A DNA stretch of 64,000 nt. Origin: Candidatus Nanoarchaeia archaeon (lineage in GTDB: Archaea > Nanobdellota > Nanobdellia > Woesearchaeales > SKIA01). This document shows, piece by piece, positions 32,812-50,627 of the stretch (within the stretch, counting starts at the first letter, position 1; the number at the start of each line of letters is the position of its first letter). The position numbers and the translations under genes were made by a program. The DNA is taken from the NCBI GenBank assembly GCA_028279685.1, contig JANQNG010000002.1, forward strand, positions 11,922-75,921, in the 5' to 3' direction. The notes under the pieces are model-generated. The model saw only the letters and a list, made by a program, of their open reading frames with translations, searched no databases and was not told where the DNA came from.

Positions 32812-34170
32812 TTACAACCTCAAAATAACCTGAGTCAAACAGTGTGGTCCTCCGTATGCCATATTCAAATGATTGAACGGTAAGAGAGTCTCTTCTACTC
32901 CTGCTTTTTTCAATACTGTATTATATTCAGTACTTATTTCAGCATAATTCCTTTGTTCTAATCCAGGAAGAGCTCCCAGTTTTTCTCCAAGCTTATGTAT
33001 ATTTTTGTAAAATACTTCCTTCTTAGCTATATCCACGCCGATAATCTTTCCATCTCCGACTGTCAGGAAATTAATGCCGTATGACATCTGCAGATCTTTA
33101 CTTACAGGAATAATCTCAAATCCTTCATCACGTAAGCAATCAGAAAATCTATTGTATTCTTTCATAAGCGTATATTTTCCACTAGGTTGTCGTTCATAGA
33201 CATCAACTGAAGGTTCTCTATTGTCTCCATTTTTTGCTTGGCCTACTCTGTTTTCAAGCACTATTGCTTTTCCTTTTGCAGGAATATTAAAGTAAGTATC
33301 CAAGTGCATTTCTGTTTGACTTTTCCATTCATCCTTAACTACACCAACTTTACTATAACCAAAGCAATCATTGTCAAAAAGTTGTGCTATTGCATCAGGA
33401 TTTGTTCTATGGCCTGTTCCAATAAATGCAATTTCTCCTGCAGGAATGAAATCTCCTCCTTCAAGTCTTCCTGAGCAATTAACTTTGTAAATTGGTTGAA
33501 TACCTAATTTCTTAAATGCGAGTTCTGTTATTGCAACTTCGTCTGTTCTCTCTTTTGAATTCATAGATCCAATAACAACTCCTTTATCAGTAGTTATCTG
33601 TTGATCTCTGAAAAACGTCTGATTATATACTGGTTTTATCTGCACAGATGCTGCATATTCAGAATTATTTTCATCACTATACGACAAATTATATGTCGGT
33701 TGAAGCAAAATAATCTCTACTAAATCTTCTGGAGCCATAAATTCAACTGAAAATTTCTTTTGCTGTCCAATTTTAGCCCGATCACACATGGTTTGAATTC
33801 CATCAGTTAACAAATGCATCGAATACAAAGCCATCTGCCTTAATTCATCAGTAACAGGACCTTCGATTATATTTCCAGTTGTGTCTCTAGTTCCATTAAG
33901 TAATATATCTCTAAGATGCAGCACTTCAGCTCCTTGCTTTTCAAGCTCTTGTACATATGCATCGTGCTCTTTTGCAGCCATCCTCCTATCCATAGGTCCC
34001 TCGTACAATGCTGCTGAAAAAAAAGCTGATCCGATAAGCATCTCTAATGAAGGCCTATGTACAATTATGGTTTTTGCAGTATCATACTCTGCAGTTACTT
34101 TTGGTTGTATTCCTTCCATTTTTGTTTTCCTCCTTTGTATAGCTCTCGCTAAGTGAATTGTTTTCCTCAT
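32812..34170 (-). CDS. amidinotransferase-superfamily enzyme (arginine deiminase/DDAH-like)
   Basis: C-terminal catalytic GGPHCLTQV (Cys nucleophile context as in the arginine deiminase GGGHCMT motif); 452 aa. Separated from argS by 1 nt. Confidence 0.6.
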   Translation of the reverse strand: MRKTIHLARAIQRRKTKMEGIQPKVTAEYDTAKTIIVHRPSLEMLIGSAFFSAALYEGPMDRRMAAKEHDAYVQELEKQGAEVLHLRDILLNGTRDTTGNIIEGPVTDELRQMALYSMHLLTDGIQTMCDRAKIGQQKKFSVEFMAPEDLVEIILLQPTYNLSYSDENNSEYAASVQIKPVYNQTFFRDQQITTDKGVVIGSMNSKERTDEVAITELAFKKLGIQPIYKVNCSGRLEGGDFIPAGEIAFIGTGHRTNPDAIAQLFDNDCFGYSKVGVVKDEWKSQTEMHLDTYFNIPAKGKAIVLENRVGQAKNGDNREPSVDVYERQPSGKYTLMKEYNRFSDCLRDEGFEIIPVSKDLQMSYGINFLTVGDGKIIGVDIAKKEVFYKNIHKLGEKLGALPGLEQRNYAEISTEYNTVLKKAGVEETLLPFNHLNMAYGGPHCLTQVILRL

Positions 34171-34311
34171 AATTAGCAGAGCTCACGCTAATTAGGCTAG
34201 CTTCTTATGCTCTGGTCTACTTATAAGAGAGCGCCGAGAAGGTATATATATTCGGTTCATTCATTCTCAACCATCTGGTTGAACTTCTCAGTACCCTTTC
34301 TGTTATGAGTG

Positions 34312-34767
34312 TCAGTTGAAATGATGCTCATCCGTCATGAATTGTTCATGATGGATGGTGTCTATGAGGTTGAAGACATGCTTCTCCGTGATTGAGTTGC
34401 TGTCTTCAAGATCGTCAATGAAGTCTTGCGCTTCTTTCTGATTCTTGAATATGCAATCAACATGAAAATCATGTCCTGTATTGATATGATGTATAGTGTT
34501 GACATTACTGCTTGCTTTGAAATATTCAAGCAGCGATTCTCTTTTTTCCGACGGTGTTTTCAAAGTGATAAACATCCTAATAGGAAACCCCAAACGTTCA
34601 TACGCAGGCACGGTGACATGCCTGAGCAACTTGCTCTCTTCCATTTTATGGAGGAGATCAGCCATCGACGACACAGGAAGATCGTTTTCCTTTGCAATCG
34701 CGTTAACTCTTGCTCTGCCATTCTTCCTGAGACCTATAATCAACCTTTTCTCTTTCTTGGTAAGCAT
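34312..34767 (-). CDS. lrp: Lrp/AsnC-family transcriptional regulator
   Basis: N-terminal HTH (KRLIIGLRKNGRARVNAIAKENDLPVSSMADLLHKMEE) plus a C-terminal RAM domain; 151 aa. Confidence 0.85.
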   Translation of the reverse strand: MLTKKEKRLIIGLRKNGRARVNAIAKENDLPVSSMADLLHKMEESKLLRHVTVPAYERLGFPIRMFITLKTPSEKRESLLEYFKASSNVNTIHHINTGHDFHVDCIFKNQKEAQDFIDDLEDSNSITEKHVFNLIDTIHHEQFMTDEHHFN

Positions 34768-34785
34768 TGTTCTCTCCCTTCTTTT

Positions 34786-34870
34786 CTTATTTCGGAATTA
34801 TTCATATACATTTGGGAATTATTCTCGAAGATCTTCCGTTGTTGTAACGATATCTTCCGAATAATTCGTT
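34786..34870. promoter_or_regulatory. three copies of a GAATAATTCCG(A)-like motif between two Lrp genes (candidate Lrp operator array)
   Basis: tcggaattattc (34792), gggaattattctcg (34814) and cttccgaataattcg (34856). The half-site TTCCGAA recurs elsewhere in the window. Confidence 0.4.
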
Positions 34871-34886
34871 TTTTTCCGTGATTATT

Positions 34887-35363
34887 TCATACTCTCGACG
34901 TGAGATCCATCAACACTATATCGGTCATGAATGCCTCACGTTTTATGTCTTCAACAATATAATGTATTCTACTATCTTCAATAACGAATTTATCATTAAG
35001 TTGTTCTATGAACCCTTCTGCATCTTTGATATGGTGAAATACTCCTTCAACCATGAAATCAAATCCGTTATTGATCCTGAATACTGAATTAATTGATTGA
35101 TGTTTAACCAGATGATTCATCAAAGCCTCTTTATCTTCTCTCGCCACTTTCAAATTCAATGTCGCTCTTGTATGAAATCCAAGTTTACTGAAATCAATCA
35201 ACGTTGTATGTTTCCTGATGATATTATTCTCATGAAACTTCAATCGGTCAAATATGGTTGATACCGGTATTGAGGTTTTTTTGCTAAGTTTAGTTAATGA
35301 CATCCTTGCATTGTTCCTCAATTGTGATATGATCCTTAGGTCATTTTTGTTCATGATTCTCAC
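34887..35363 (-). CDS. lrp: Lrp/AsnC-family transcriptional regulator
   Basis: HTH_AsnC plus RAM domain. It is a clear paralog of 61847..62329, sharing ...IPVSTIFDR...FSKLGFH...INNG(F/Y)DF(M/L)VEGVF.... Confidence 0.85.
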   Translation of the reverse strand: MRIMNKNDLRIISQLRNNARMSLTKLSKKTSIPVSTIFDRLKFHENNIIRKHTTLIDFSKLGFHTRATLNLKVAREDKEALMNHLVKHQSINSVFRINNGFDFMVEGVFHHIKDAEGFIEQLNDKFVIEDSRIHYIVEDIKREAFMTDIVLMDLTSRV

Positions 35364-35516
35364 TCGAAATTATTATCTCCGTATTGAATTACTTCTTAGA
35401 ATGTTGGAAATATTATATATTTTTGCCAATTATAATTATTACTCGTAATTATATAATTACAAAAGGAAAAAATATATAAATAATGGAATATTTCCTTATT
35501 TCAAGGTAAAATTACA

Positions 35517-36455
35517 ATGAAACGAAAAATCAATAGAGTAGGACAAAACACACTTACAGTGAGTCTACCCAGCAAATGGGCTAAAGAGAAGGAATTACAG
35601 CAAGGAGACGAAATTGAGCTCACAGAGCTTCCAGAAGGCCTTCTACTTCAACAAGAGGGAAAAAGCAGAGAATCTAAGCGTATTTCTATTAATATAGACC
35701 ACTTTGCGTATTATTCACTATCTCGCTATCTTACTGTGTTATATAGGGCTGGCTATGATAAAATAACGCTTATTCATAATAAGCATGAGACGTTTAATGA
35801 TAAGAAAGGAAAATACCTAAAAACACAGGATGTTATTAAGAAATTAGTCAATAGATTTGTTGGTTCTGAAATTATTTCACAAACAAGTTCAAAAACTGAG
35901 ATAGAATGTCTTGTTACAGAGAAACAACAAGATCTGAATAAAATCCAGAAAAGGATCTACTTTCTTATTAAAGAGACTTTTAGCGAGATTCTTAATGCAG
36001 TTAATGAAGATTATGCTACCTTTCACGATTCTATTTATAGTCATCATGATCATATTGCAAAATTCATTAATTATTATTTGCGAGAACTTATTGCTTCTGA
36101 TACACCTGCTGCAGAGAAGCATATGAGTTATTCACTCTATATGATTATTGATAAGCTTATTGATAAAATAAGACATATTAGTGAGAAAATTCATGAATAC
36201 GGCTGTAGTAAGAAAATACATAATCATCTTGGACAGATCTTTGAAATAATAAGCGATCAGTTCTTAAGTTTATATAAACAAGAATATACAAGAGATCTTG
36301 TGAAGAAACGATATAATCTTGTGAAGAAAATTGAGAAAGAGAAATACACACCGTCAGAGCTCCAAGTTATCTCAGAAGCGAAGATATTCTTGGATACGAT
36401 CAATGACTTCACAGAATTGATTGTCTGTCAGAATTTGAAAAAGATGGAAGAGTGA
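35517..36455 (+). CDS. AbrB/SpoVT-type swapped-hairpin DNA-binding domain fused to a PhoU-like helical domain (tentative)
   Basis: N-terminal RVGQNTLTVSLPSKWAKEKELQQGDEIEL is AbrB/MazE-like. The remaining ~250 aa are helical repeats, as in archaeal PhoU-like regulators. Confidence 0.45.
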   Translation: MKRKINRVGQNTLTVSLPSKWAKEKELQQGDEIELTELPEGLLLQQEGKSRESKRISINIDHFAYYSLSRYLTVLYRAGYDKITLIHNKHETFNDKKGKYLKTQDVIKKLVNRFVGSEIISQTSSKTEIECLVTEKQQDLNKIQKRIYFLIKETFSEILNAVNEDYATFHDSIYSHHDHIAKFINYYLRELIASDTPAAEKHMSYSLYMIIDKLIDKIRHISEKIHEYGCSKKIHNHLGQIFEIISDQFLSLYKQEYTRDLVKKRYNLVKKIEKEKYTPSELQVISEAKIFLDTINDFTELIVCQNLKKMEE

Positions 36456-36456
36456 A

Positions 36457-38574
36457 TTAATCAAGTTTTTCGAAATTTGATTCCATATACTCTTCTACTA
36501 AACACTTTTCAAACATTCTATACATTTTTTTATAATGATGATTTTTTGCAATTAGACAAGATTTAATTAAATCTCTGAGGTTATTATCTTTTATATTATC
36601 ATCGACTTTCTGCAGATACGGCTTTAAACGTTCGCCTGTAGTATCAGCGTAGACTTCATCACGTTCATCCTTAATATTATGCGCATGAATAGACAATTCC
36701 ATACTAGGAGATTCAGCAAAAATATGCTCATCAGTAGCCATCTTATACATCACTTGACCTAACGAAACAAGATCATTAGGCATCTGGCCTTTACCACCAT
36801 ATCTCCTATTATACCCCTTCTGCAACGCATACTTATCAGTCGTCGCAGTACCAAAATCAATAATCACAGCTCTATCTTTCTGCTCATCAACCATAATATT
36901 TGCAGGCCTAATATCTCTGTGAAACCAAATACTTGCCTGACGCATCTCGAAAAGACCGTTCATAATATCAGAAGCATAACGCAATACATCCTCTGAAGAT
37001 AATTCTTTCTTTTTTATTGTACTTTCTAAAGTATCTCCTTTAATATATTCAATTTTTACTCCAATATCTTCCTTGTGATCTAAATAACTAGTTTTGCTAA
37101 ATCCATCATCACTAATTACATCGCCAGGTTCTCCCAGAACTTTAATAATATTTTTTTGTTTTCCTTCAAACCTTTTATTAATCATATCTAAAAACTTATA
37201 CTCTTTCTGTATTTCCTTAGAGAACTTCCAAGCATCATTTTCAGCTCTAAGCACTATGCCATTAGCTCCCGTTCCAATACAACCAAGATTTTCAACTTTG
37301 CTCGTAACATCCCTATAGTTGTATAATGAATCTAGGAGCTTAAGTAGATTATGATGATTTTTAATTTTATTAGGATCAATTCCAAGTCTTGCAATTACAG
37401 GTATCTGGTAACTCTTAACTTCCCCAGGGTAAGAATCTGCAACCTCTGGAGAAACATCAAACATAAAAAATTTAGCAATAGTAAATCCATCAAATCTTTC
37501 AGGATAAAAGTTAGCTCTTTCTGGATCTACTCCTGCAAAAAACAACCTTTTTATCATCCATGCTGAGAATCTTTTGCCGCAAACAGCAACATATGGATTA
37601 GCATCATCAGGATGGACAAACCCCATAGATTCTCCACGATCCCAAGTATTTGCTAGTACTGAAGCTTCTTCCCAATCAAAAGAAGCATCATATTTATTCG
37701 CAATCTCATGAGAAACACCATACAATATAAACTCTCGAATTGAAACCCCACCATACCTTTCATCATATTTATCAGCTTCTTCAGGCGACACATTACCGTC
37801 AATCAGATATCCAATTTCGTAAGCATTAAACCTTTTGTTGTACGTAAGCACTTTTTCAATTGTAACATTTTCCTTTCTCTCAAAATCAACATTTTTAAAA
37901 AAAAGTGTTTCTATATCATCTTTGTTAAATCGTTCTGTTATCTCTATTGATTGTTCAGGAAGAATATCTACAAAGAGTTGCATACCTAATTGATAATCAC
38001 TAAGGCTATTAGGATATAACGATGCTCTCTCAGCATCAACATCTAATTTTTTCAACTTAGCAATATGTACTCCTCTAAATCTTTTATCATAACATATCGC
38101 TTCTTCATTTAGAACATTACCTCTATGAAGAATTGCAATATCCCATCCTGTAAATCTATTATCATAACTTTCTGCAATAATATGATCGATTCCTTCATTT
38201 ACCATATACTCAATTTCAGATCCACAAAATCTTGAATTAAATGTGATTGCCTTTTCATTTAGGACATTTGCTTTTATTAACTGAACAATATCATAACCAT
38301 TAAATCTTTTATCATATACTTCTGCTTGTTCAGGTGTTATTTCATTCTCATAAAGATTAGCAATATCCCAACCACTAAACCAAGAAGGATATTTATTTAC
38401 CACCTCTGGAAGTAAAGTCTTAAAATAAAGAAAATGACTAAGATCTTCCTCTCCAAATCTAGCATCATATGTATTTGCAACTTCAGGAGAAACTCCATGT
38501 TTAGCTAATTTCTCCTTATATTTGCCAAAGCGATCATCATATTCCTCAAGCGCAAACTCATCAATACTCATCAA
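36457..38574 (-). CDS. Ser/Thr protein kinase (Hanks-type catalytic domain) with ~12 N-terminal ~35-aa Y-x-x-R-F-x-G repeats
   Basis: Catalytic loop HRDIRPANIMV and IIDFGTATTD (DFG) in the C-terminal third. The N-terminus carries repeated YDARFGEEDL / YDKRFNGYDI / YDNRFTGWDI / YDKRFRGVHI / YNKRFNAYEI / YDERYGGVSI / CGKRFSAWMI / YPERFDGFTI units. Confidence 0.7.
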   Translation of the reverse strand: MMSIDEFALEEYDDRFGKYKEKLAKHGVSPEVANTYDARFGEEDLSHFLYFKTLLPEVVNKYPSWFSGWDIANLYENEITPEQAEVYDKRFNGYDIVQLIKANVLNEKAITFNSRFCGSEIEYMVNEGIDHIIAESYDNRFTGWDIAILHRGNVLNEEAICYDKRFRGVHIAKLKKLDVDAERASLYPNSLSDYQLGMQLFVDILPEQSIEITERFNKDDIETLFFKNVDFERKENVTIEKVLTYNKRFNAYEIGYLIDGNVSPEEADKYDERYGGVSIREFILYGVSHEIANKYDASFDWEEASVLANTWDRGESMGFVHPDDANPYVAVCGKRFSAWMIKRLFFAGVDPERANFYPERFDGFTIAKFFMFDVSPEVADSYPGEVKSYQIPVIARLGIDPNKIKNHHNLLKLLDSLYNYRDVTSKVENLGCIGTGANGIVLRAENDAWKFSKEIQKEYKFLDMINKRFEGKQKNIIKVLGEPGDVISDDGFSKTSYLDHKEDIGVKIEYIKGDTLESTIKKKELSSEDVLRYASDIMNGLFEMRQASIWFHRDIRPANIMVDEQKDRAVIIDFGTATTDKYALQKGYNRRYGGKGQMPNDLVSLGQVMYKMATDEHIFAESPSMELSIHAHNIKDERDEVYADTTGERLKPYLQKVDDNIKDNNLRDLIKSCLIAKNHHYKKMYRMFEKCLVEEYMESNFEKLD

Positions 38575-38700
38575 CCATACCTCTCACAGCCTCTAAAAAT
38601 AGGAATTGAAGCTAGTTTATATCTCTGCTTTTCTATCGCTTTCTATGTTTATAAAATTTACTACTTTTTAGTAGTTTCTTAATTATTTTCCATATAGAAT

Positions 38701-39501
38701 TTATAATATGTTTTTCACATCGTAAATAGATGGTACGCGAATAACATTCTCCTGTTCTGGATATTCATCTGTAGAAATATGAATTACGTTCATACCAAGA
38801 GAGGTTGCAGGGACAACATCGCTATGATATAAGTCACCAACATAGACAATCTCTGAAGGATGTGCTCCAGTGATTTCAAGAATTTTTTCAAATGGTTCTA
38901 ATGATGGTTTTTTATCTTTAACAACTTCTGAACAAATAACAAGAAATGGTGTGTCTGTTTTCATATGAAATGCAGAAAGCGGTATTGCAAGTGCATTGGT
39001 TACTTTTTCAACGGTAGAAAATACTTCTGATGTCATAATACCTAATTGATATTTATCGTCGAGATATTCTACTAAACCACACAACTCTTTATCTTCTGCA
39101 AGTATTGATGCAAAATCAGTATTACCCACAAGTCTTGCTACAAATCCAGCATCAGTATCAAAAATATTAGTGAATAATTTTCCATTCGAATGATATTGTT
39201 CAAGAAGATTATCATAATGCATTTTCATTTCTTCAGGAAATGATGCAATCGCTTCTAGTAAAGTATTATTTTGAATATGTTCTTTGTATTCTTGTATTAC
39301 TTCATTAGCTAATGCTTCAGGATCAGGAATACCTTCTTCTCTTGCTTTTGAGAAAGCAGAATATCTAAAGAACTCATGAGAATTCTGCACCGTACCTCTA
39401 CCAGGAATGTATTCTCTCTTCTTCCCATACAATGTACCATCAACATCAAAAATAACATATTTGATATTTTTCCAATTCATATGCACACCAATGTTCTCCA
39501 T
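38701..39501 (-). CDS. HAD-superfamily hydrolase/phosphatase
   Basis: Motif I FDVDGTLY, a distal VYVGD motif and a cap domain. It is embedded between kinase genes. Confidence 0.7.
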   Translation of the reverse strand: MENIGVHMNWKNIKYVIFDVDGTLYGKKREYIPGRGTVQNSHEFFRYSAFSKAREEGIPDPEALANEVIQEYKEHIQNNTLLEAIASFPEEMKMHYDNLLEQYHSNGKLFTNIFDTDAGFVARLVGNTDFASILAEDKELCGLVEYLDDKYQLGIMTSEVFSTVEKVTNALAIPLSAFHMKTDTPFLVICSEVVKDKKPSLEPFEKILEITGAHPSEIVYVGDLYHSDVVPATSLGMNVIHISTDEYPEQENVIRVPSIYDVKNIL

Positions 39502-39543
39502 TTTATAAAGTTTTCCATTTTTATTCCTGATTGGTAGTAATAA

Positions 39544-42183
39544 TTACGAAGGAACTATCGCTAAATCAATCTGACTATACTCCAACGTATCTCTATCTAT
39601 CAAGTATCTCTTCCCCACATCTGAGACAATAACGCCTTGCTCTGTAGGAACAATATCAAATCGAGGATAAGCTACAACACTCTTTTCTCTTTGTGCAAAC
39701 AGCCTTCTTCTAAATCTATCAGTCAGTATACCTTTATCTATAAAATCAAGAAACATTACCTCAATCTCTTCCCTCTTTTCAGAATATTTTTCTTTCGAAA
39801 TTCCAAGCATATGAAGCAATAAATACCAATTACGATTAAGAATCACATGATACTTTTTTACACACTCATTCATATCAAACCCAGAATCATACATAAGTTT
39901 CATTTCCCATCCATCAACATGCACATCATATTTTCCAACATAAGAATCAGGAATATCTTCTTGGATAAAGAAATGAATCTCTTCAGGAGAATATCTTAAC
40001 TTCTCTTTGAGAATCGTATTCTTGAAAATATATTTTTCTGCTTTTTCAAGAGGAACATTGTTATTCATAAAATAGGCAAGCGCATACAAATCAAAATCAG
40101 GGTGTTTCTTTTCAAGTATTTCTGATGGAAGTTGCTCATTGATGACTTGCCCTATTTTTTTCTTATCACTATCTTCTAAATACTTAACAATCCACTCATC
40201 CTCTCCACAATCATCATCCTTTAGCAAATATTCTATGCGTCCTTCATATTCAGGATGTCTTTTGGCTATAATATTATCAGATCCTACCGCTTTACTAACA
40301 ATCTCCTCAACATTCTCAGGAATGTAGTCAGCATATTCGAGCAATTCATACCATTCAAACATACGTTTCACTTCACGAATTTTCTCAATAGAAGGTTGCT
40401 TCCAAAGATCGTCATAAATCATATACAAGATTATTTTCTTCAAAGATTTTTGTTTTCCAGGAAAACTTATTCTGTCCTTAACAAAAGAAGCTGACCAAAA
40501 CATATTATCTCTTTCATATCGACTTTCTCCAAAAGGAGCATCCATGATTTTTTTAATATATTCTTCTGAAAGACGACCTAATGAATATGCCTTTTCTCTT
40601 TCTTCCCGAACATCATCTTTATAATCATCAGTACTATCAAATTCCTCGCTGAACAAATTATGAGTTGTCGCTAATTTGTAAAGAATTAATCCTAAGGAAA
40701 GAAGATCATTATTACCACCATACGCACGATTCAATGGATGAATCTCTTCAGGATTAGTTGTAGCTGCTCCTAAATCAATCAAAGTAGCGTTCATTGTTTT
40801 TTTATCATACATAATATTAAGAGGATGAAGATCTCTATAATAGAGCCCTCCTTCTCTAAGTTCTTCAAATCCAAGAATCACTCCTAACCCTACATTTAAT
40901 ATGTCTTCCTCTTGTAAAGGTTCAGGAGAAATATATTCTGTTCTCCAATTCCAGCCTAATTCAGGAGTTAATGTTTCAATGAGAGGTCTCCCTTCTACAT
41001 GCTTAAGAACTAACATACCTTTCTCTTTATCATATCGCTTACATTGAACAACATGCTTCGCATTCGGAATTCTTTGATAAAAACTGAATTCTTCATCAAG
41101 ATCATCACCAAATTTGTACGCTTCTTTGTTGAAAGGATCAATTAGCACATATGTTCCAGAACCAGGATGAGTAATATCGAGTAATGTATCAAGATCCTCT
41201 CCTTTTATCGCTCTTCTAAGTTCTTTCCGTATCACACTTTTTAACCTTGTAAAAAAATACTTAGAAGGACTTATTCCTCTTTGAGACAGCATTGGAAATA
41301 TTTCCAATTGATTAGCAATTCTGCCAAAGTACGTTTTATGAGAAGGAAGTTCATTATCGCAGTCCAGTTTATTCCAGATATCTATCACCTCTTGGATTTG
41401 CTGAGCATTCATAAATGCAGAAAGTCTTAGTGTAGAACGGAAACGATCAAAATGTATTTTTCTATCAAACTCATGATCATATGGATCATGAGGATCTCTC
41501 TGCCAATCCACATGACAAACGCTAAAAAATGATTCATTCTTTTCAAGAAGTTTATTGAATCTTTTAATTGCCTGTTGATTATAATCAGTCATCAATACAT
41601 TCATTCTCCCAAGGATACGTTCAACAACAGTTAATACATCCATATGCTCAGTTTTGTATGCAACATCGATAGCCTGTTGAAGAATATTTTTTATTTCAGG
41701 GACAGCCATAAGACCCATCCAATGTTCATGAATCTCACCCATATGATCAAATTGTTCAAGAACCTCTTTATAGTACGTACTTGTTTGTTCCTCAGCAAAT
41801 GCTTTTCTTTCTTCTTCTGTTTCTAGATCATACATCTTGACTATATCAAAAGAAATAAATTCTGTATCGGAATAATGATGAAAATGATATGCCATTTTAT
41901 GACCTATTCTATCAATAAGAAGAGGTTCATCATGATATAACTCAAGTATTTGTATGTATTGATCTTGAAGTTTAACATTATTTGGATATCGATCAAACCA
42001 TCTCATCCAATCAACAGCCCATTCAAATAATTGTTCCTTATATCTATCTTCATAGTAATCTTTCATCTCTTCGAAAAGAACCGTTAAAGCAGAGGTAAAA
42101 CGTTCTTTTTTTGTTTCTTCTAGAACTAATTTCTCAAGAGGTGCAATATCTTTAACATGCAATGAAATTTTTTCAATACTCAT
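39544..42183 (-). CDS. large protein with a central atypical protein-kinase-like domain
   Basis: YYRDLHPLNIMY (HRD-loop variant) and IDLGAATT (DFG variant), followed by NRAYGGNNDL, which is shared with the 42180..43979 kinase; 879 aa. Confidence 0.55.
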   Translation of the reverse strand: MSIEKISLHVKDIAPLEKLVLEETKKERFTSALTVLFEEMKDYYEDRYKEQLFEWAVDWMRWFDRYPNNVKLQDQYIQILELYHDEPLLIDRIGHKMAYHFHHYSDTEFISFDIVKMYDLETEEERKAFAEEQTSTYYKEVLEQFDHMGEIHEHWMGLMAVPEIKNILQQAIDVAYKTEHMDVLTVVERILGRMNVLMTDYNQQAIKRFNKLLEKNESFFSVCHVDWQRDPHDPYDHEFDRKIHFDRFRSTLRLSAFMNAQQIQEVIDIWNKLDCDNELPSHKTYFGRIANQLEIFPMLSQRGISPSKYFFTRLKSVIRKELRRAIKGEDLDTLLDITHPGSGTYVLIDPFNKEAYKFGDDLDEEFSFYQRIPNAKHVVQCKRYDKEKGMLVLKHVEGRPLIETLTPELGWNWRTEYISPEPLQEEDILNVGLGVILGFEELREGGLYYRDLHPLNIMYDKKTMNATLIDLGAATTNPEEIHPLNRAYGGNNDLLSLGLILYKLATTHNLFSEEFDSTDDYKDDVREEREKAYSLGRLSEEYIKKIMDAPFGESRYERDNMFWSASFVKDRISFPGKQKSLKKIILYMIYDDLWKQPSIEKIREVKRMFEWYELLEYADYIPENVEEIVSKAVGSDNIIAKRHPEYEGRIEYLLKDDDCGEDEWIVKYLEDSDKKKIGQVINEQLPSEILEKKHPDFDLYALAYFMNNNVPLEKAEKYIFKNTILKEKLRYSPEEIHFFIQEDIPDSYVGKYDVHVDGWEMKLMYDSGFDMNECVKKYHVILNRNWYLLLHMLGISKEKYSEKREEIEVMFLDFIDKGILTDRFRRRLFAQREKSVVAYPRFDIVPTEQGVIVSDVGKRYLIDRDTLEYSQIDLAIVPS

Positions 42184-43979
42184 GATTTATACCTCTCGAA
42201 CATCGCTTTTGCTTCAATAACATCTTCTAACTCAGGTTGCACCCACAAATCACCATCCAACAAATCAACAATAATATCGGCCAACACAGAATCAGCAACA
42301 TCCTCACGAATTTTACACAAATACTCCTGCAACAACTCAGGATCATCATACACTTCCTCTCTCTTAGTTTTAACACCTTTCTTCACAACACTATAACAGG
42401 TGAATCCAGGGCCTTCATTAAACAAATTACGACCAGTAGCCATCTTATACATCAACTGACCAACACTAATTAAATCATTATTACCACCATAAGAACGATT
42501 CAAAGAATGAATCTCAGAAGAATCAGTAGTCGCAACACCCAAATCAATTACAACAGCACGATCTTTTTTCTCATCTATGAGTATATTCCTATCGTGTATG
42601 TCTCTATGATAAATTCCTACTTCTCTTAACTCAATAATCCCATTAATAACATCTTTAGTGTAGGAAAATGTTTTCTCTATTAGGAAAGGCTTTCTGCTCA
42701 AAAGCTTCTTCTCTAATGTTTCTCCAAAAATGCGCTCTATCTTTATTGCTAGATTATGCTCCTGTATCGATCTTTTAGCATAATCTGGTTTGTCCAACAG
42801 CCTAACAACATTTGATTTTTCCTTTTGTTTCTTTCGAAGCAACTCTAATAATTCATATTCATGATCAATACCATATGAGAATTTCCAACTAATATCTTCT
42901 TCATTAAAAATAAATGATTCTCCTCCTGAAGCAAATAAACTTAATGTCTTGTAAAGTGTATTAAAAAAAACTTTCGATTCAACTATATCTTCAAGTAAAT
43001 AAGATAAACCTTGGCTTTTATATTCTTTATACCCATCATAATTTATACCTAAATGCCGAAGCATTCTAAGCTGCATTAACCCCAAAGTATTCCTTTCGCT
43101 GTAAAATCCATTCGCTTCTTCAGGAGTATATCTTTCTGAGAAAAAATATTCAAACTTTTCAAAATCATTTAACATTTCATACTTTTGAACATATTCTGGA
43201 GAAATATTTTCATTTATAATTTTCAATATTGTATTCGAAGTAATAGTATTTTTTTTAGAGCGAAATCTTATATCAGTTTCAAACATAAATTTTCTTATAT
43301 TTTTTACCGATTGAACATTATTATCTTTTCTAATATCAAAATCTTTTCTTCGTCTTTTTAGTAATGAAAGAGCAGCATTATGCATTTCCTTACTAGTAAG
43401 AGGCTTCCTATTCTGATAAATAGAAGGGTTTTGATTAAGATGAACTTTTATTATTTCATCTGCTTTTTCAGCAGAAACATTATTTTCTATCAACTCAAAT
43501 ACACTATGCGGAGTTATTCGAGAATCATAAATATTAACTTCCCGAGCTTTGACACCATTAAGAACACAATTTAGTATCTGATACGCATCAAACCTTTTAC
43601 TATACTGATTTATGTGACTCGGAAACTTTCCAAGCTTTCTTAAGAGAATTAATATATCTGATCGTCTATTAACAACATCATTAGCACGTCCAAAGATTTC
43701 TTGTTTCATTTGCAGCATTTCATAAGCAATTCCCCCAGCATGATCCTCTCTATGAGCTAACTTTTCAAGTAAACTTTCAAGGCCTACTCGTTTTCCCCTA
43801 AATCTTTTCCCATACGCATTTGCGGTAGAAGGAGGTATTTTATTCTTATAGAGAAAGACAATATCTTCTCCTTCAAATTTATGATGATATTCATTAAAAG
43901 CAACAGGAGGTATGTTGAATTCTTTCATTATTTCTTCATTTGACATAAGCATTAATCTTATTGATTCATCACTATTCAT
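42180..43979 (-). CDS. protein kinase with N-terminal Y-x-x-R-F repeats (paralog of 36457..38574)
   Basis: IYHRDIHDRNILI, VIDLGVATTD and NRSYGGNNDL. N-terminal YGKRFRGKRV / YSKRFDAYQI repeats. The stop overlaps the downstream start. Confidence 0.65.
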   Translation of the reverse strand: MNSDESIRLMLMSNEEIMKEFNIPPVAFNEYHHKFEGEDIVFLYKNKIPPSTANAYGKRFRGKRVGLESLLEKLAHREDHAGGIAYEMLQMKQEIFGRANDVVNRRSDILILLRKLGKFPSHINQYSKRFDAYQILNCVLNGVKAREVNIYDSRITPHSVFELIENNVSAEKADEIIKVHLNQNPSIYQNRKPLTSKEMHNAALSLLKRRRKDFDIRKDNNVQSVKNIRKFMFETDIRFRSKKNTITSNTILKIINENISPEYVQKYEMLNDFEKFEYFFSERYTPEEANGFYSERNTLGLMQLRMLRHLGINYDGYKEYKSQGLSYLLEDIVESKVFFNTLYKTLSLFASGGESFIFNEEDISWKFSYGIDHEYELLELLRKKQKEKSNVVRLLDKPDYAKRSIQEHNLAIKIERIFGETLEKKLLSRKPFLIEKTFSYTKDVINGIIELREVGIYHRDIHDRNILIDEKKDRAVVIDLGVATTDSSEIHSLNRSYGGNNDLISVGQLMYKMATGRNLFNEGPGFTCYSVVKKGVKTKREEVYDDPELLQEYLCKIREDVADSVLADIIVDLLDGDLWVQPELEDVIEAKAMFERYKS

Positions 43980-43991
43980 TCAACATACCCC

Positions 43992-46694
43992 TCAATCATT
44001 ATTTTTGAACGGACCGCTCATATCAAATATCTTCCCCCTGCAACTATTGTTAGTTTCATCAGATTCTCTATAATTATTATCAGAATCTACTATAAAACAA
44101 AAAGACAATAAAGCATTGCCATGCTTTTCATAATATTGTTTAACTTTATCAAATGGAACATACGGTCCTAGATACATTTGATCTTTATTTCCAGGTTCTA
44201 AGGAAATCTTACTATCCAACATTAAATCTATTTCAGGAATCCCAAATTTTATCGGAATATTTTCTAAATAATATGGACTATCATTGTAAAAATTAGCTCT
44301 AACTTGATACATAAAATGCTCTTCTCCAGATCTACTAGGACTAAAAGTCTCATAACTGTATGGATCTGCCCTTAAATCAATAGGTTCATCAGAAACATTT
44401 AATCCACCTACACACACCTCACTTTTCCTACCATCACTTACAGAAAAAACAACATGATAATAACCATTATGCTGAGAATTTGGGGTAAATGTAAACTTCT
44501 TCCCTTGACTAATCACTCTCGTACTATCTGTTAATAAAGTGACATTCGAACCTAAGGAAATATGCTCTTCAAAAACATCTTCTCCTTCTTCTTTCTCTTG
44601 AAGAACAACCCATTTATAATACAACGAATCACCATCCAGATCTTCGACATTAGCTGCAAAATTTATTGGAACTCCTATTGGAACATCAGGATAAGGATCT
44701 CCTTTAAAGAAACGTTCAGGAAATACAGTAATAATACTTGGAGAATAATTACCTTTAACTAAAACATTCCATTCTTGAGTCGATTCAAATACACCATCAT
44801 TTACCACACACTTTACTCTGTGGTTACCAGGATCAATAACCTGAAAATCTAGTTTTACCCTGTCTTTATCATTTGAAAGAGGAACATTATCAAGAAACCA
44901 AGAAAATGAAACATCATCTCTTGATATAAGATCAACCAGAGAAAAATATGCTTCGTCACCTTTTCCAAATTTATGTTTAAGCCTATATGGTCTAAGCTCA
45001 TCTTTTACATCTACCTTAAATTCAACAGGTTTATCTTTCTCTGAAGTCTCAAAAAACCTTTTTTCAGGTTTATATGCATCAATACGAGGAGCTCTATTTT
45101 CATATGATATAAAAATTATTTTCGTATAAATATCTGCTAATCTATCTGAAACAGTTCTTGTCGAAGAAGTATCAGTTTCCATCTGTGCATTTCGTATAAA
45201 ATAAACAATCTCATCATTTTCCTGTCTTTTCTTAAAATCAAATGAGAATCCATATACATAATGACTGCTTTTATCTCTTCTAAGAAACTCAGCCTCTTGC
45301 TTCTTCTTAAGAACACCATTCAATATCCAATAACACGTAGCTCCTTCAAGATTAGCAGAAGTAATTAAAATTTCAGGAAGATCATCTGCCAAACAATACA
45401 TTGGCTGTTCAAATGTTTTTACTGCTTTATTTCGCTCATTTCTTAAAGCCAAATTAGTCGTATCGCTTTGATCATCCCAAATCCATTTAACATAAGAAGT
45501 GTCAGCTCCTCCTTCTATTATAAAATTTTCACCACCATCATTAAAATAAGATTCAAAAGTAGGATATTTATTTCTAAACTCTAGAGCATCTTCAATCCAA
45601 CCTCGTTCATTAGCACGCCATTTTTCATATTCTTTAATTATTCTATTTCCTTCAAATCTTCTCCAAGAAGCATCTCCTGTCAAAAACAAGCCATACAATG
45701 CTGCTGAGCCCAGAAGTATATAAGCAGGAATCTTAATTTTATTCCAAACAGCTTTTCCTATCTTTCCAAAGTTTATTTTTTTTAACTTTCTTCGAAAGCG
45801 ACGTACTTTTCCAAAATCTCTTCCCAACTCACCAACACTTTGAAATCGCTCATCAGGGTCGTAGCGAAGACATTTTCTTAATATTCTTTGAATTCTTTTA
45901 TTTTTTATTCCTTCAAGCTTTCTCTCTAAACTATCATAACTCTTAGGATTATTCAAAACATCTTTCATTTCAGATTTCTTCTCGCATTGGAAAGGGCGTT
46001 CTCTCAGGCAAAGTTCATACAACAACACTCCTAACGACCAAACCTCTGAACGCGCATCAAATTTACCATCAAGCGTTTCAGGTGCTTGATATTCTCTATC
46101 ACCAGAATAGTCTCCTGTAATATCATCACCCATAGCAATACCATAATCAACAACCTTCACCAAACCAGATTTTTCAAGCATAATATTCTCTGGTTTAATA
46201 TCCCTATGAAAGAATCCAGCATGATGAATAGCAGCTACTCCTTTAGTAGTTTGCGAAAATATTGAAACAATCTCACCAAGAGATAATTCCTTCTTTCGCT
46301 CTTGCAAAGAAAGAAGTGTCTCTCCACGAATAATATCAAACAATAAACCATCTACCTTTCTTTCCCTTTCTATCCCATCATTCTCTTCAACAATAGTAAT
46401 ATCATTAATATTTGCTCTATAATTTGCAAGATTAGGATGTTTCAGCATTGAAAGCACATAACCTGTTCTTGATTCAACTTGAGAAAGATCTATTCCTTCT
46501 TTTCTCCTAACTCCTTCAAGCATACGATACGCATTTGAACTATCTCTCAAAGGATTTCCTGGAATAATTTTTAGAGCAAAGATATTATCTTTATTCTTAT
46601 CATCCTGAACTTCAAAGTAATTTCCCGTAGCACCTTCTCCTAATCTCTCAATAACATTATATCCAGGTGCTTCCACGGAAATAATTCTAATCAT
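43992..46694 (-). CDS. transmembrane receptor-like Ser/Thr protein kinase with a large extracytoplasmic beta-rich (Ig/PKD-like) domain
   Basis: N-terminal canonical kinase: GEGATGNYF (Gly loop), ALKII (VAIK Lys), HRDIKPENIML, VVDYG (DFG) and APETL (APE). A single TM helix lies at ~aa 323-341, followed by an ~550-aa extracellular region. Confidence 0.85.
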   Translation of the reverse strand: MIRIISVEAPGYNVIERLGEGATGNYFEVQDDKNKDNIFALKIIPGNPLRDSSNAYRMLEGVRRKEGIDLSQVESRTGYVLSMLKHPNLANYRANINDITIVEENDGIERERKVDGLLFDIIRGETLLSLQERKKELSLGEIVSIFSQTTKGVAAIHHAGFFHRDIKPENIMLEKSGLVKVVDYGIAMGDDITGDYSGDREYQAPETLDGKFDARSEVWSLGVLLYELCLRERPFQCEKKSEMKDVLNNPKSYDSLERKLEGIKNKRIQRILRKCLRYDPDERFQSVGELGRDFGKVRRFRRKLKKINFGKIGKAVWNKIKIPAYILLGSAALYGLFLTGDASWRRFEGNRIIKEYEKWRANERGWIEDALEFRNKYPTFESYFNDGGENFIIEGGADTSYVKWIWDDQSDTTNLALRNERNKAVKTFEQPMYCLADDLPEILITSANLEGATCYWILNGVLKKKQEAEFLRRDKSSHYVYGFSFDFKKRQENDEIVYFIRNAQMETDTSSTRTVSDRLADIYTKIIFISYENRAPRIDAYKPEKRFFETSEKDKPVEFKVDVKDELRPYRLKHKFGKGDEAYFSLVDLISRDDVSFSWFLDNVPLSNDKDRVKLDFQVIDPGNHRVKCVVNDGVFESTQEWNVLVKGNYSPSIITVFPERFFKGDPYPDVPIGVPINFAANVEDLDGDSLYYKWVVLQEKEEGEDVFEEHISLGSNVTLLTDSTRVISQGKKFTFTPNSQHNGYYHVVFSVSDGRKSEVCVGGLNVSDEPIDLRADPYSYETFSPSRSGEEHFMYQVRANFYNDSPYYLENIPIKFGIPEIDLMLDSKISLEPGNKDQMYLGPYVPFDKVKQYYEKHGNALLSFCFIVDSDNNYRESDETNNSCRGKIFDMSGPFKNND

Positions 46695-47308: not shown

Positions 47309-48493
47309 TCTTCTTAGGACATATTTGTTATTTTTCGGACGAGGAGATACAATTTTCTTTTCCCCTCTTGCTGTCTTCATATACATACTTTCATTCATTT
47401 CAATGCGAGGTATTCTATTCTTATTACAATAACCGAAGTTTGCTGAATAAGCAATCCCTTCCCATGCATGAAAACTAGCATCATAATACTCTAATACAAG
47501 CTCCCATTTCTCTAATGCCTCTTGAGAAATAATCTTACTCTGTCCTTCAGGTAAACTTCCTCCTGGAAACGCAAATATATCACTAATTCTTGAAGGATCA
47601 TCAACGCAACTCTCTAATGCGTTCTTCGTCATTTCAAATTCTTTTCTGATCTGTTCAGGCGATGCATGCTCTAGTCGTACATGGTGATAAGTATGATGTC
47701 CTATATTGAACCCCATATCAAGCAGTTGATTAATCTTCATAGCACCAAATCCTTCCTGGCAAAAAGGTTCTTCATATGATCCATTGAATGCTTTATCGTT
47801 ATTAGCAAAATCTATGAAGAAAATCCCTTTCAATCCCCAATCTGGATGCTTTTTATTGAATTCCTTCATAAGAGAGACAGCACAATGTTCATCAAGCATA
47901 GGCTCTCCTGACTCCTCATAAAGAGGCTCATCTCCGTTAATGATATACTCCATCTGTCCTCTATTAGCATCATCAAAGGTTAAAAGAATTGGTCTTGTTC
48001 CTTCAGGAAGATCATAACTATTGGTGATAAACTCTTCATAACTAATTGGTCTAAATCCATATCGATAATAGGTTTCAAGATGATTCCAAAAGCTTTCCGG
48101 ACTTGTTGTGTAATTATCACCATGATGATCATCAATGACATGATACATCGGAATAGGAATGGTTGTTATGTTCGGATTGCGTTGAGATGTAATCACCATA
48201 GAAGGCGTTTTCCGATGAATAGGATCTTGTCTTAATTTCCAAGCCCATTGGAAATCAATAAATTCCTGATAATCAACAGGATTGATAGTGCAGACCACTT
48301 GCGTATCCGAGGAAGCATACAATGTAGAATCAATCATTGGACGGACAATCTCAACATAGAAAGACTTGTTGGAAAATAATTTTTCTTGAACATCGTTATT
48401 GTGAATAGTAGCATCGTGAGCAAATAAAGTTGTTGTACCTAACACAAACGCCAGTGCTGCTCCAAAGATTCCTTTTTTTATTACATTCATCAT
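47306..48493 (-). CDS. secreted polysaccharide deacetylase (NodB homology/CE4 family)
   Basis: Signal peptide; LLTFDDA (TFDDG motif), HHTYHH His motif. Confidence 0.75.
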   Translation of the reverse strand: MMNVIKKGIFGAALAFVLGTTTLFAHDATIHNNDVQEKLFSNKSFYVEIVRPMIDSTLYASSDTQVVCTINPVDYQEFIDFQWAWKLRQDPIHRKTPSMVITSQRNPNITTIPIPMYHVIDDHHGDNYTTSPESFWNHLETYYRYGFRPISYEEFITNSYDLPEGTRPILLTFDDANRGQMEYIINGDEPLYEESGEPMLDEHCAVSLMKEFNKKHPDWGLKGIFFIDFANNDKAFNGSYEEPFCQEGFGAMKINQLLDMGFNIGHHTYHHVRLEHASPEQIRKEFEMTKNALESCVDDPSRISDIFAFPGGSLPEGQSKIISQEALEKWELVLEYYDASFHAWEGIAYSANFGYCNKNRIPRIEMNESMYMKTARGEKKIVSPRPKNNKYVLRR

Positions 48494-49374
48494 AATGTAT
48501 TCACTTGAAGATATTGTTTATGTTCTATAAGCTCAGGAGGCATCCTGATACGCTCTTTCTTGTATGGTGTAAAATTAGAAGGATCTCCACTCTTTGTTCT
48601 TCTCTTCTTATAGACTTTGTTGAATTTGCTATTGAACTCAAAGATATCATCATAATATTCTTCATCGCCTGCAACTTTTTTTGCAATAGCTCTGAGCGAC
48701 TCCTTACCAGTTGCCTCATAATATTCTCGAGGAATATAATCTTCAAGCGATTTCTTTTCTCCCGAAGTAAAACTATATTGCACAACCTCTGACTTGTTTT
48801 TCACTATGTCGGAAGGGATCCTTAGTATCTGCGCTTTCTCAATCACATTAGATTTCAGTTTATTGTGATCATAGATTCTTTTCCAAAGACTTCCATCTCC
48901 TGATATTTTCTTTGCAATCATAACAAGATATTCATCAGGCTGCACAACATAGAGATGTTCTTTCCTTGCTGTGTTGATAGGAATTGCAGGTGCTATCTCT
49001 TTTGGAGAAGGCTTCTTTGTCGTTTGCATGGGAACAGTATTTTGTTTCTCTTCTTTTTTTCTCAATAAAGTATACTCTCCCTTAAGACGCTTATGCTCAT
49101 CCTTGATGCTGTCTTTCTCAGCCTTCAAACGATCATACTTTGCCTGAACTTCCTTTGCACGTTGTTTCTCAATTTGATATTCCGTCAGATAAGTCCTTGT
49201 AGTCTGTACAACTTCTTTCTCATCAAATTTATTATTGATCCATATTCCTCCTGTGACTCCTCCTGCAATCAGCAAAGCAGTCATAACTACTCTTCCAAAA
49301 CGCCTCTTTTTCTGTCTAGAACCCATCCTATTTCCAGGACTTTCATGAGGTTTATTATCTGCGAAGAATCTCAT
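48490..49374 (-). CDS. membrane-anchored LysM-domain protein with a coiled-coil
   Basis: TM helix VMTALLIAGGVTGGIWI, a coiled-coil, and LysM-like YVVQPDEYLVMIAKKISGDGSLWKRIYDHNKL...ILRIP. Confidence 0.55.
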   Translation of the reverse strand: MRFFADNKPHESPGNRMGSRQKKRRFGRVVMTALLIAGGVTGGIWINNKFDEKEVVQTTRTYLTEYQIEKQRAKEVQAKYDRLKAEKDSIKDEHKRLKGEYTLLRKKEEKQNTVPMQTTKKPSPKEIAPAIPINTARKEHLYVVQPDEYLVMIAKKISGDGSLWKRIYDHNKLKSNVIEKAQILRIPSDIVKNKSEVVQYSFTSGEKKSLEDYIPREYYEATGKESLRAIAKKVAGDEEYYDDIFEFNSKFNKVYKKRRTKSGDPSNFTPYKKERIRMPPELIEHKQYLQVNTL

Positions 49375-50627
49375 ACTACCACCTTCTCATACATAGCATC
49401 AATATGTTTACTTAGTTTCTTTTCTGTCATATTCGGTATGTTTTTTGATAGAAAAAAAGGTTTAATGTATTCTATCTCTTTTTGCAGACTACGCACTGTT
49501 TGATAAGCTGCATCAATAGTAAAACAAACATCAAACTCAGTTGAATTTCTTTCACTTTCAAAAGATTTTGACACATCACATCTAGAAAAATCATGAAAAT
49601 GCTCTTTAAAATATGCTATTTCTCTTTTCATTTTGTTATGCATCATTCCCACTTTCGAATCATAAGGTGAAGCAATAAGATAATCATTTACTGTACGAAT
49701 AAACGTTCTTAGTTTCGATATATACTGTCTGGTATTTTCTAATGCGCTTTGAAGGTCAGTACAACTGTTCTTTTGATCCTTGTATAATCTCTCTCTATAT
49801 TGTTCTGTTCGAGGATCATGAAAGTTTATTATTCTATATGCTGCTTCGAGAACTTTTTCAGCAGGATTTAATAACTCATACGAAGCACATAATTCTTGTT
49901 GTCTTTCGATGAAATCTTTAATTTCATTAACTAATACTTTACTAGTGATGTTAGATATAGATGTCTTCGCACTCATCATTCTATTATAATTCTCGCCAAG
50001 TGATGTTGATTCTGTTGTTTCCATCACAACTTCTTTTTTGGCAGAATCATCAGTAACCCATTTTACTCTTTCTAGAGATATAGATACTTTTTCCGCTCTT
50101 TTTTTGAGTAACGCAATCATGCTCTCCTCAGGACATATATTAGAAGCTATCACATCCTCAATAGTATCTTTATCAATATTATCGATGAATGCATCTATCA
50201 TCAGTATTGCTTTAAGATCATGAATATCAGAAGCGTTCTTGATAAGTGATCTGGCCATTGTACTATTAATCATACTCGAATATTGAGATCCTGCAATATG
50301 AGATTCTATATTGGAAATAGATATATTCTTTTTTCTCTTTGATAATGAATTTCCATTTCGTCTATTTGCAGCATAAGTAAATAAATCAAGAAGATGTTTG
50401 TTATTCGCAAAAAGTATATTCGAAGGTATTTTTTTTTGATCACTTATTCTCTTAAAATAATCGCAAGCGACAGCATTTCGCAGATTATGTGCTCCCACGT
50501 GGCGATGTCTTGATAATTCTGGAGCAAAATAACTTAAAAATAAAGAAGATCCGAGAGGAAGGCTATGATTTACTTCTGCTTTTCTTTCTACTGCTCCTAT
50601 AATATGTGCAATTGTCATAATCATCAC
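49371..50627 (-). CDS. hypothetical protein
   Basis: 418 aa ORF whose stop and start overlap its neighbours (operonic). Confidence 0.5.
   Translation of the reverse strand: MMIMTIAHIIGAVERKAEVNHSLPLGSSLFLSYFAPELSRHRHVGAHNLRNAVACDYFKRISDQKKIPSNILFANNKHLLDLFTYAANRRNGNSLSKRKKNISISNIESHIAGSQYSSMINSTMARSLIKNASDIHDLKAILMIDAFIDNIDKDTIEDVIASNICPEESMIALLKKRAEKVSISLERVKWVTDDSAKKEVVMETTESTSLGENYNRMMSAKTSISNITSKVLVNEIKDFIERQQELCASYELLNPAEKVLEAAYRIINFHDPRTEQYRERLYKDQKNSCTDLQSALENTRQYISKLRTFIRTVNDYLIASPYDSKVGMMHNKMKREIAYFKEHFHDFSRCDVSKSFESERNSTEFDVCFTIDAAYQTVRSLQKEIEYIKPFFLSKNIPNMTEKKLSKHIDAMYEKVVV

Follow-up and report, generated by a model that had tools for sequence, protein, structure and literature searches.

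A 25-residue repeat of no catalogued family, predicted to form an alpha-solenoid, in a Hanks-type kinase of a Nanoarchaeia archaeon

Introduction

Several mycobacterial kinases of the Hanks type are fused to repeats: PknG joins its kinase to TPR units, PknD to an NHL beta-propeller, and PknB to PASTA repeats. This study concerns a comparable fusion in an archaeon, the kinase K1, which is encoded in a 64,000-nucleotide stretch of DNA (hereafter, the window) from Candidatus Nanoarchaeia archaeon (assembly GCA_028279685.1, contig JANQNG010000002.1). As in the mycobacterial proteins, a Ser/Thr kinase is joined in K1 to a tandem-repeat module, putatively for recognition or regulation; unlike theirs, the K1 repeat belongs to another family and is N-terminal, and no membrane segment separates it from the kinase.

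The repeat of K1, which we have named the YDxRF repeat, can be set beside several known helical repeats. LRV is a 24-residue leucine-rich repeat variant (PF01816) in which an alpha-helix alternates with a 3-10 helix to give a right-handed superhelix, as in the Azotobacter vinelandii protein of PDB entry 1LRV. The YDxRF repeat resembles it in having a very short period (25 residues, against 24 in LRV), in pairing a normal with a very short helix, and in being predicted to stack into a helical solenoid. With TPR, Sel1, HEAT, and ankyrin repeats it shares conserved hydrophobic core positions, a variable surface, a number of copies that varies, and fusion to diverse enzymes; however, those repeats have a period of 33–40 residues with two full-length helices per unit, and their Pfam models do not match it. 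The TALE/BurrH, mTERF, and PPR repeats and the designed left-handed alpha/alpha toroids (dTor, DHR) are also among the closest known systems.

In DPANN archaea, whose genomes measure about 1 Mb, the lineage-specific proteins are for the most part uncharacterized. An original prediction, made from the sequence of the window, had proposed a novel tandem repeat of about 35 residues in the N-termini of three kinases. Here we describe the extent, period, family, and predicted fold of that repeat, and propose that residues 12–406 of K1 are 15 copies of an uncatalogued 25-residue alpha-helical repeat, which probably forms a solenoid scaffold for binding or targeting on an intact kinase.

Results

K1 (36457..38574, minus strand) is a 705-amino-acid open reading frame (ORF) with an N-terminal repeat array and a C-terminal Hanks-type kinase domain. 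The mechanical ORF (MMSIDEF...) starts with TTG at 38569..38574; the database copy of the protein, P0001, is otherwise identical and starts one codon downstream with ATG (704 amino acids), which is the more likely start. The array consists of 15 tandem units at residues 12–406 (37357..38541, minus strand), including three with insertions or degeneracy, and 12 of the units are significant against a hidden Markov model (HMM) of the family. The original prediction had given 37500–38574 as the position of the repeats and had counted about 12 of them in 36457..38574; the array extends slightly past 37500.

The units start at residues 12, 36, 62, 87, 112, 137, 162, 187, 214, 245, 270, 295, 332, 357, and 382, and their consensus is YDKRFsGeDIaeLvkaGIsPEeAnk. 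Autocorrelation of residues 1–410 with BLOSUM62 scores was maximal at a lag of 25 (0.16, compared with a mean of −0.98 and a standard deviation of 0.10 in shuffled sequences; z = 11), with secondary peaks at lags 50 and 75. At lag 35 it was at background (−1.17). Together with the unit starts, these values show that the period is 25 residues and not the roughly 35 first proposed. In the same residues there are 11 occurrences of the motif [YFC]xx[RW][FY], compared with 0.45 expected and a maximum of four in 20,000 shuffles. The family HMM was built from 689 units of 150 proteins, of which only about 12 units came from K1; searched against the six-frame ORFs of the window, it matched K1 with E = 2.9e-79. 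By all three measures the internal repetition is far beyond chance. No tandem repeat was found at the DNA level, and the units are about 25–40% identical in pairwise comparisons; because the repetition is absent from the DNA, we conclude that the units are old and diverged.

All units lie on the minus strand. Unit 1 (residues 12–35, 38470..38541, YDDRFGKYKEKLAKHGVSPEVANT) has 24 residues, and unit 2 (residues 36–61, 38392..38469, YDARFGEEDLSHFLYFKTLLPEVVNK), which is weak against the family HMM, has 26. They are followed by unit 3 (residues 62–86, 38317..38391, YPSWFSGWDIANLYENEITPEQAEV), which was modeled with a predicted local distance difference test score (pLDDT) of 98, unit 4 (residues 87–111, 38242..38316, YDKRFNGYDIVQLIKANVLNEKAIT), unit 5 (residues 112–136, 38167..38241, FNSRFCGSEIEYMVNEGIDHIIAES), unit 6 (residues 137–161, 38092..38166, YDNRFTGWDIAILHRGNVLNEEAIC), and unit 7 (residues 162–186, 38017..38091, YDKRFRGVHIAKLKKLDVDAERASL). 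Unit 8 (residues 187–213, 37936..38016, YPNSLSDYQLGMQLFVDILPEQSIEIT) is degenerate and not significant against the HMM, and was placed by register and by the helices of the AlphaFold2 model; unit 9 (residues 214–244, 37843..37935, ERFNKDDIETLFFKNVDFERKENVTIEKVLT) contains an insertion, with extra helices in the model, and has an independent E-value of 0.018. Units 10 (residues 245–269, 37768..37842, YNKRFNAYEIGYLIDGNVSPEEADK) and 11 (residues 270–294, 37693..37767, YDERYGGVSIREFILYGVSHEIANK) precede unit 12 (residues 295–331, 37582..37692, YDASFDWEEASVLANTWDRGESMGFVHPDDANPYVAV), in which a 12-residue insertion is predicted to form a small beta-hairpin. The array ends with unit 13 (residues 332–356, 37507..37581, CGKRFSAWMIKRLFFAGVDPERANF), unit 14 (residues 357–381, 37432..37506, YPERFDGFTIAKFFMFDVSPEVADS), and unit 15 (residues 382–406, 37357..37431, YPGEVKSYQIPVIARLGIDPNKIKN), a degenerate C-terminal cap; units 12 and 15 were, like unit 8, placed by register and predicted helices. 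The nine motif strings that the original prediction had quoted from this gene are all present, at residues 36, 87, 112, 137, 162, 245, 270, 332, and 357.

The register of the array is broken at two places. One is a stretch of ~58 residues with extra predicted helices (residues 187–244, 37843..38016), and the other is the beta-hairpin insertion at residues ~309–318, within 37582..37692. The pLDDT falls to 74–79 at both, and these breaks could be specialized binding sites or hinge points.

A family search with an HMM built from the repeats, which the original prediction had called for, was performed with a profile of 50-column double units (A1) and HMMER against 1.84 billion representative proteins. 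It matched 340 proteins at E ≤ 1e-3, 247 at E ≤ 1e-10, and 81 at E ≤ 1e-30; these 340 members are cluster representatives and correspond to about 340 clusters. A word-index search of 5.8 billion proteins with the 50-column alignment gave only 17 candidates and nothing useful, and a synthetic query of 10 consensus units recovered 17 repeat-only proteins. The close homologues P0002, P0003, and P0004 are kinases with 9–12 very clean units at a strict 25-residue spacing. Among the top 150 members, neighboring units were exactly 25 residues apart in 273 pairs, by far the commonest spacing, followed by 50, 24, and 26, and across the family the number of units per array ranges from 2 to about 17–21.

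Conservation was determined per position for 546 units. Strongly conserved are Y1 (69%, plus 14% F), R4 (76%), F5 (85%), I/V10 (87%), L/F13 (91%), I/V/C18 (92%), P20 (67%), and A23 (81%); moderately conserved are D2, G7, D/E9, G/N17, E21, and N24. Nine positions in each unit, 3, 8, 11, 12, 14–16, 22, and 25, are essentially free.

AlphaFold2 modeled residues 1–400 of K1, with a 28-row alignment, at a mean pLDDT of 92.6 and a predicted template modeling score (pTM) of 0.80; for five units (residues 62–186), with a gapless in-register alignment of 35 rows, the values were 98.2 and 0.88. Each unit consists, in either model, of a 9-residue helix (positions 7–15), a 4-residue turn, a helix of 4–5 residues (positions 20–24), and an 8-residue non-helical stretch. 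The predicted models thus have the regular helix-helix-loop units and the conserved positions (1, 5, 10, 13, 18, and 23) of the alpha-solenoid class, and their secondary structure and confidence agree with the solenoid that the original prediction had put forward for a check by structure prediction. The claims about fold and family are well supported, the fold being a prediction.

The repeat was then compared with known classes. Pfam-A gave no match on residues 1–430 of K1 at E ≤ 1, nor on five clean arrays at E ≤ 10 except for a single HTH_29 match to one array, which is non-significant (E = 0.009, relative to a 28-bit cut-off). The LRV model PF01816 was without a match at the same thresholds, as were, at E ≤ 10 on the arrays, the models of TPR, Sel1, HEAT, HEAT_PBS, ankyrin, pentapeptide, and MORN repeats, which have periods of 33–40, 5, or 23 residues, compared with 25 here. 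The original prediction had likewise seen no obvious likeness to TPR, MORN, pentapeptide, Sel1, or ankyrin repeats. NCBIfam matched only the kinase part of K1, with nothing on the array at E ≤ 1, and precomputed Pfam annotation of the repeat-only proteins was empty. PDB sequences searched with A1 and with a second alignment of 125 columns and 35 rows (A4) gave no match, the best E-values (0.04 and 0.12) belonging to irrelevant proteins. A Foldseek search of the PDB reached a best E of 0.17, with template modeling scores around 0.1–0.2. Neither the Pfam HHH models nor structural similarity placed the repeat among HhH or (HhH)2 proteins, and no significant structural match linked it to TALE, mTERF, or PPR proteins. 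In the literature, no description of a DPANN kinase repeat was found. Within this comparison of hmmscan, PDB hmmsearch, and structure searches, which is weaker than a profile-profile comparison (HHpred), the YDxRF repeat is not assignable to TPR, Sel1, HEAT, ankyrin, MORN, pentapeptide, LRV, HhH, TALE, mTERF, or PPR repeats. Although the catalogues compared do not recognize this repeat, the architecture is of a known sort, a Hanks-type kinase joined to an alpha-solenoid scaffold.

A linker of about 30 residues, without a membrane segment, connects the array to the kinase domain (residues ~430–690, 36505..37287, minus strand). Both profile and motifs identify this domain as a Hanks-type Ser/Thr kinase: Pkinase (PF00069) matched residues 453–676 with E = 4.4e-14 and 52.9 bits, above the cut-off of 31.7. 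The catalytic residues are the GxGxxG motif (GTGANG; G436), K450, E458, HRD (552–554), N559, and D573 of DFG. Because every one of them is present, and invariant in an alignment of 18 family members, K1 is predicted to be an active Ser/Thr kinase. The nearest solved kinases reach only E ~1e-7, and by sequence comparison the K1 kinase family is a separate clade, so far found only in DPANN-type archaea.

The array occurs in several contexts. In 78 of the top 150 members, a kinase of the same family lies C-terminal of the array, and in a few of these kinases units flank the kinase on both sides. P0144 combines an array with a GNAT domain and HEAT repeats. Many other members are repeat-only proteins of 200–360 amino acids. 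A hydrophobic N-terminus is present in 40 of the 79 non-kinase members and a lipobox (for example, ...LAGC or ...VGGC) in at least 23 of them, compared with none of the 78 kinase members; 140 of the 150 members lack a transmembrane-like segment. The fusion partners are all enzymes, and the kinase, caspase-like peptidase, thioredoxin, and GNAT families commonly act on proteins. Given these varied architectures, the YDxRF module is portable, being found on probably cytoplasmic kinases, predicted lipoproteins, and putatively secreted enzymes; the enzymatic partners fit a portable targeting module.

Some individual members are described here. Seven proteins (P0007, P0030, P0035, P0066, P0077, P0109, and P0119) have a caspase-like Peptidase_C13 domain followed by a thioredoxin domain and a C-terminal array, and these fusions have a signal-like N-terminus; P0007 is named "caspase family protein [Candidatus Woesearchaeota archaeon]". 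P0005 (1318 amino acids) joins in a single chain a domain of the inositol-monophosphatase family, about 17 YDxRF units, and a kinase. The repeat-only proteins with a lipobox, which make up roughly one quarter to one half of the non-kinase members and are predicted to be surface lipoproteins, include P0054, P0069, P0082, P0087, P0101, P0103, P0105, P0160, and P0161, and those with names are each a "hypothetical protein" of Woesearchaeota or Nanoarchaeota.

K1 closes a run of co-directional genes on the minus strand, in the order K4 (43992..46694), K3 (42180..43979), K2 (39544..42183), a HAD-family hydrolase gene (38701..39501), and K1; the four kinase genes occupy about 9.3 kb. The repeats had been proposed for the N-termini of three of these kinases, which held for K1 and, in degenerate form, for K3, and failed for K2. 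K3, a 599-amino-acid paralogous kinase of K1's family by ORF and Pfam analysis, matched the family HMM with E = 4.8e-16 and has 3–5 degenerate units, assigned to residues 31–174 (43458..43889, minus strand) at 31–54, 56–63 (partial), 128–149, and 151–174, with fragments extending to residue ~290. Both strings quoted from this gene are present, YGKRFRGKRV at residue 56 and YSKRFDAYQI at residue 126. Since an alignment with two repeat-kinases from other genomes, P0043 and P0050, covers the whole of K3, we conclude that its N-terminus is a decayed array. In K2, an 879-amino-acid paralogous kinase with its kinase domain at residues 361–599, the family HMM found no N-terminal units; non-significant traces (E = 0.14) lie C-terminal of the kinase domain at residues ~697–745 (39949..40095).

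In a scan of one genome per species, the kinase family was found in 18 loci, from Candidatus Woesearchaeota, Nanoarchaeota, Nanobdellati, and Nanoarchaeia metagenome-assembled genomes (MAGs) and from five MAGs labeled "uncultured Methanosarcinales". Clusters of two to four tandem paralogous kinases with 0–16 units recur in related genomes. Of 20 related loci, at least 13 have after the cluster an opposite-strand gene for a protein of ~310 amino acids with an AbrB/SpoVT-like N-terminus, and a gene for an AsnC-type regulator. In the window the AbrB/SpoVT-like gene (35517..36455, plus strand; 312 amino acids, with the AbrB/SpoVT-like domain N-terminal) is convergent with K1. A HAD hydrolase gene adjoins the kinase cluster in three other loci (L010, L013, and L019), and an arginine-deiminase-like gene lies downstream in L019 as it does in the window. 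The locus looks like a vertically inherited chromosomal signaling locus rather than a mobile island. A scan of a viral collection with P0002 found no relative. The PADLOC matches (PD-T4-6, mad6, PglW, and MkoA) lie on the generic kinase domain only and so do not point to a defense system.

The conserved gene order spans 32812..46694 of the window and was seen in L002, L004–L006, L008, L010–L013, L015, L016, L019, and L020. Past its first ~70 residues the AbrB/SpoVT-like protein has no recognizable domain. The Methanosarcinales-labeled MAGs (L004, L006, L009, L011, and L012) have a GC-content of 29–42%, and four of them (L004, L006, L011, and L012) have the AbrB-like neighbor gene; their labels may be unreliable.

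Nearly all of the named repeat proteins come from Woesearchaeota or Nanoarchaeota; one belongs to a Candidatus Peregrinibacteria genome of the candidate phyla radiation (CPR). This protein, the repeat lipoprotein P0160 (8001..8960 of locus L021), has genes for MurD, DNA polymerase III beta (dnaN), Mfd, and RNase J as neighbors. Because these neighbors are bacterial, P0160 is genuinely bacterial, which suggests that the repeat has moved between DPANN archaea and CPR bacteria. In another locus, L022, a repeat lipoprotein adjoins a kinase-like gene and an AbrB-like gene. A pairing of this lipoprotein with a repeat kinase was considered and rejected, the neighbor being an unrelated APH-like kinase without repeats.

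The rest of the window was also surveyed. K4, which opens the cluster, contains a canonical Hanks kinase domain by ORF and Pfam analysis and no YDxRF units by the family HMM. It is receptor-like, with an N-terminal kinase domain, one hydrophobic segment (about residues 322–342), and a PKD/Ig-like C-terminal region of ~560 residues with weak PKD, Big_9, and cadherin-like matches. At 48490..56695 (minus strand) is a run of co-directional genes of 294, 418, 236, 436, 453, and 436 amino acids with almost no Pfam assignment; amid them a ThiF/E1-like protein is encoded at 52576..54057 (PF00899, E = 1.7e-42), and the run may be an uncharacterized E1-associated system. Scans of the window for tRNA genes and Rfam families were empty.

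Discussion

We propose that each YDxRF unit would fold as its 9-residue helix, a tight turn at positions 16–19 with G17 and I18, and a short helix capped by S/P-P-E, with an extended loop of eight residues, containing Y1, R4, and F5, leading into the next unit. Y1, F5, I10, L13, I18, and A23 would pack into the continuous hydrophobic core of the solenoid, and the nine variable positions would line its surface. The array of K1, probably located in the cytoplasm, would then be a rigid scaffold for binding or targeting, most likely of proteins, through which substrates, regulators, or the paralogous kinases would reach the catalytic domain, with specificity diversified among the tandem paralogues K1, K3, and K2 through unit number and surface residues. 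We infer a scaffold function because of the periodic hydrophobic core, the nine free positions, the variable copy number, and the promiscuous fusion to enzymes; the ligand, most probably a protein, is putative. The "ligand- or protein-binding sensor" role of the original prediction is likewise plausible, judging from the architectures and from the way in which core positions are conserved and surface positions vary.

Several points weigh against this proposal. Any ligand of the array is hypothetical. The high pLDDT partly reflects the regularity of the repeat input, and the assignment of positions to core and surface is tentative, as is the handedness of the superhelix. The conserved R4 and the likewise conserved acidic positions 2, 9, and 21 might form a regularly spaced ladder for ligand binding instead of making structural contacts, and a remote link of the repeat to a known class is conceivable. 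Predicted lipoproteins, at least 23 in number, and the apparently secreted caspase-like fusions contain the same repeat; therefore, the binding partner need not be a cytoplasmic protein.

That last point can be carried further: the repeat may primarily be an extracytoplasmic surface recognition module of episymbiotic archaea, adhesin-like and directed at host or envelope components, with the kinase arrays as a secondary form that senses an intracellular version of the same ligand. The frequency of hydrophobic N-termini and lipoboxes among non-kinase members, in contrast to the kinase members, agrees with this explanation, as do the signal-like N-termini of the caspase-like/thioredoxin fusions, the occurrence of members in Woesearchaeota, in Nanoarchaeota, and in one CPR bacterium in a bacterial gene context, and the repeat lipoprotein of L022 next to kinase-like and AbrB-like genes. 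However, the longest and best-conserved arrays (up to about 17–21 units) are on proteins that, like K1 itself, lack both a signal peptide and a membrane segment, the kinase-like neighbor in L022 is of the different, APH-like type, and the ligand is only postulated. We regard this explanation as unlikely.

The array might instead be a strongly diverged form of a known helical repeat, for which LRV would be the best candidate and HEAT/PBS-lyase-like, TPR/Sel1-like, or tandem HhH repeats the others; the YDxRF repeat would then be an ordinary diverged repeat. The 24–25-residue period and the pairing of a long helix with a very short one in each unit resemble LRV, the segment L-x-x-x-G-[IV]-S-P-E-x-A-x-x-Y is superficially like the HhH signature L-x-x-x-G-I-G-x-x-x-A-x-x-I, and there is the weak match to HTH_29. 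In view of the comparisons with Pfam, the PDB, and predicted structures described above, we consider a known class improbable.

The array might also be a modular solenoid that binds nucleic acids as TALE/BurrH, mTERF, or PPR proteins do, in which case roughly one unit would correspond to each nucleotide and the kinase would be tethered to DNA or RNA. The nearest natural structures are indeed those of TALE, mTERF, and PPR proteins, although all of them fell below significance. The K1 array is strongly acidic (isoelectric point 4.7, charge about −24), and other arrays in the family have isoelectric points up to 9.2, which argues against a conserved role in nucleic acid binding; we consider this alternative very improbable. 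Finally, the possibility that the repeat is a chance or compositional artefact of a low-GC genome with proteins rich in Lys, Glu, Asn, and Ile, to which the 32–38% GC of the window and the biased proteins of such genomes might point, is refuted by the motif count, the lag-25 autocorrelation 11 standard deviations above the shuffles, the score of K1 against an HMM made almost wholly from other proteins, and the 340 members with exact 25-residue spacing.

A wider interpretation, which we put forward with little confidence, is that the YDxRF repeat is a structurally new alpha-solenoid of ultra-small episymbionts, unlike any solved structure, the same scaffold being used on both sides of the membrane in the recognition layer of a lineage-specific system for host interaction and signaling. 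If so, it would act outside the cell on surface lipoproteins and secreted caspase-like/thioredoxin enzymes and inside the cell at a multi-kinase signaling locus, and it would have arisen in these episymbionts and be largely restricted to them, namely to DPANN archaea and to the CPR bacteria that acquired it from them.

Apart from its catalytic domains, what stands out most in this kinase locus is an uncatalogued repeat. Its definition as a family, by profile, register, predicted fold, 340 members, and three architectures, would make hundreds of "hypothetical proteins" annotatable. A very confidently predicted 25-residue solenoid without a counterpart in the PDB is a reasonable target for structure determination and for repeat-protein engineering, and the comparison of array, kinase, and lipoprotein forms offers a handle on signaling and surface recognition in these symbionts.

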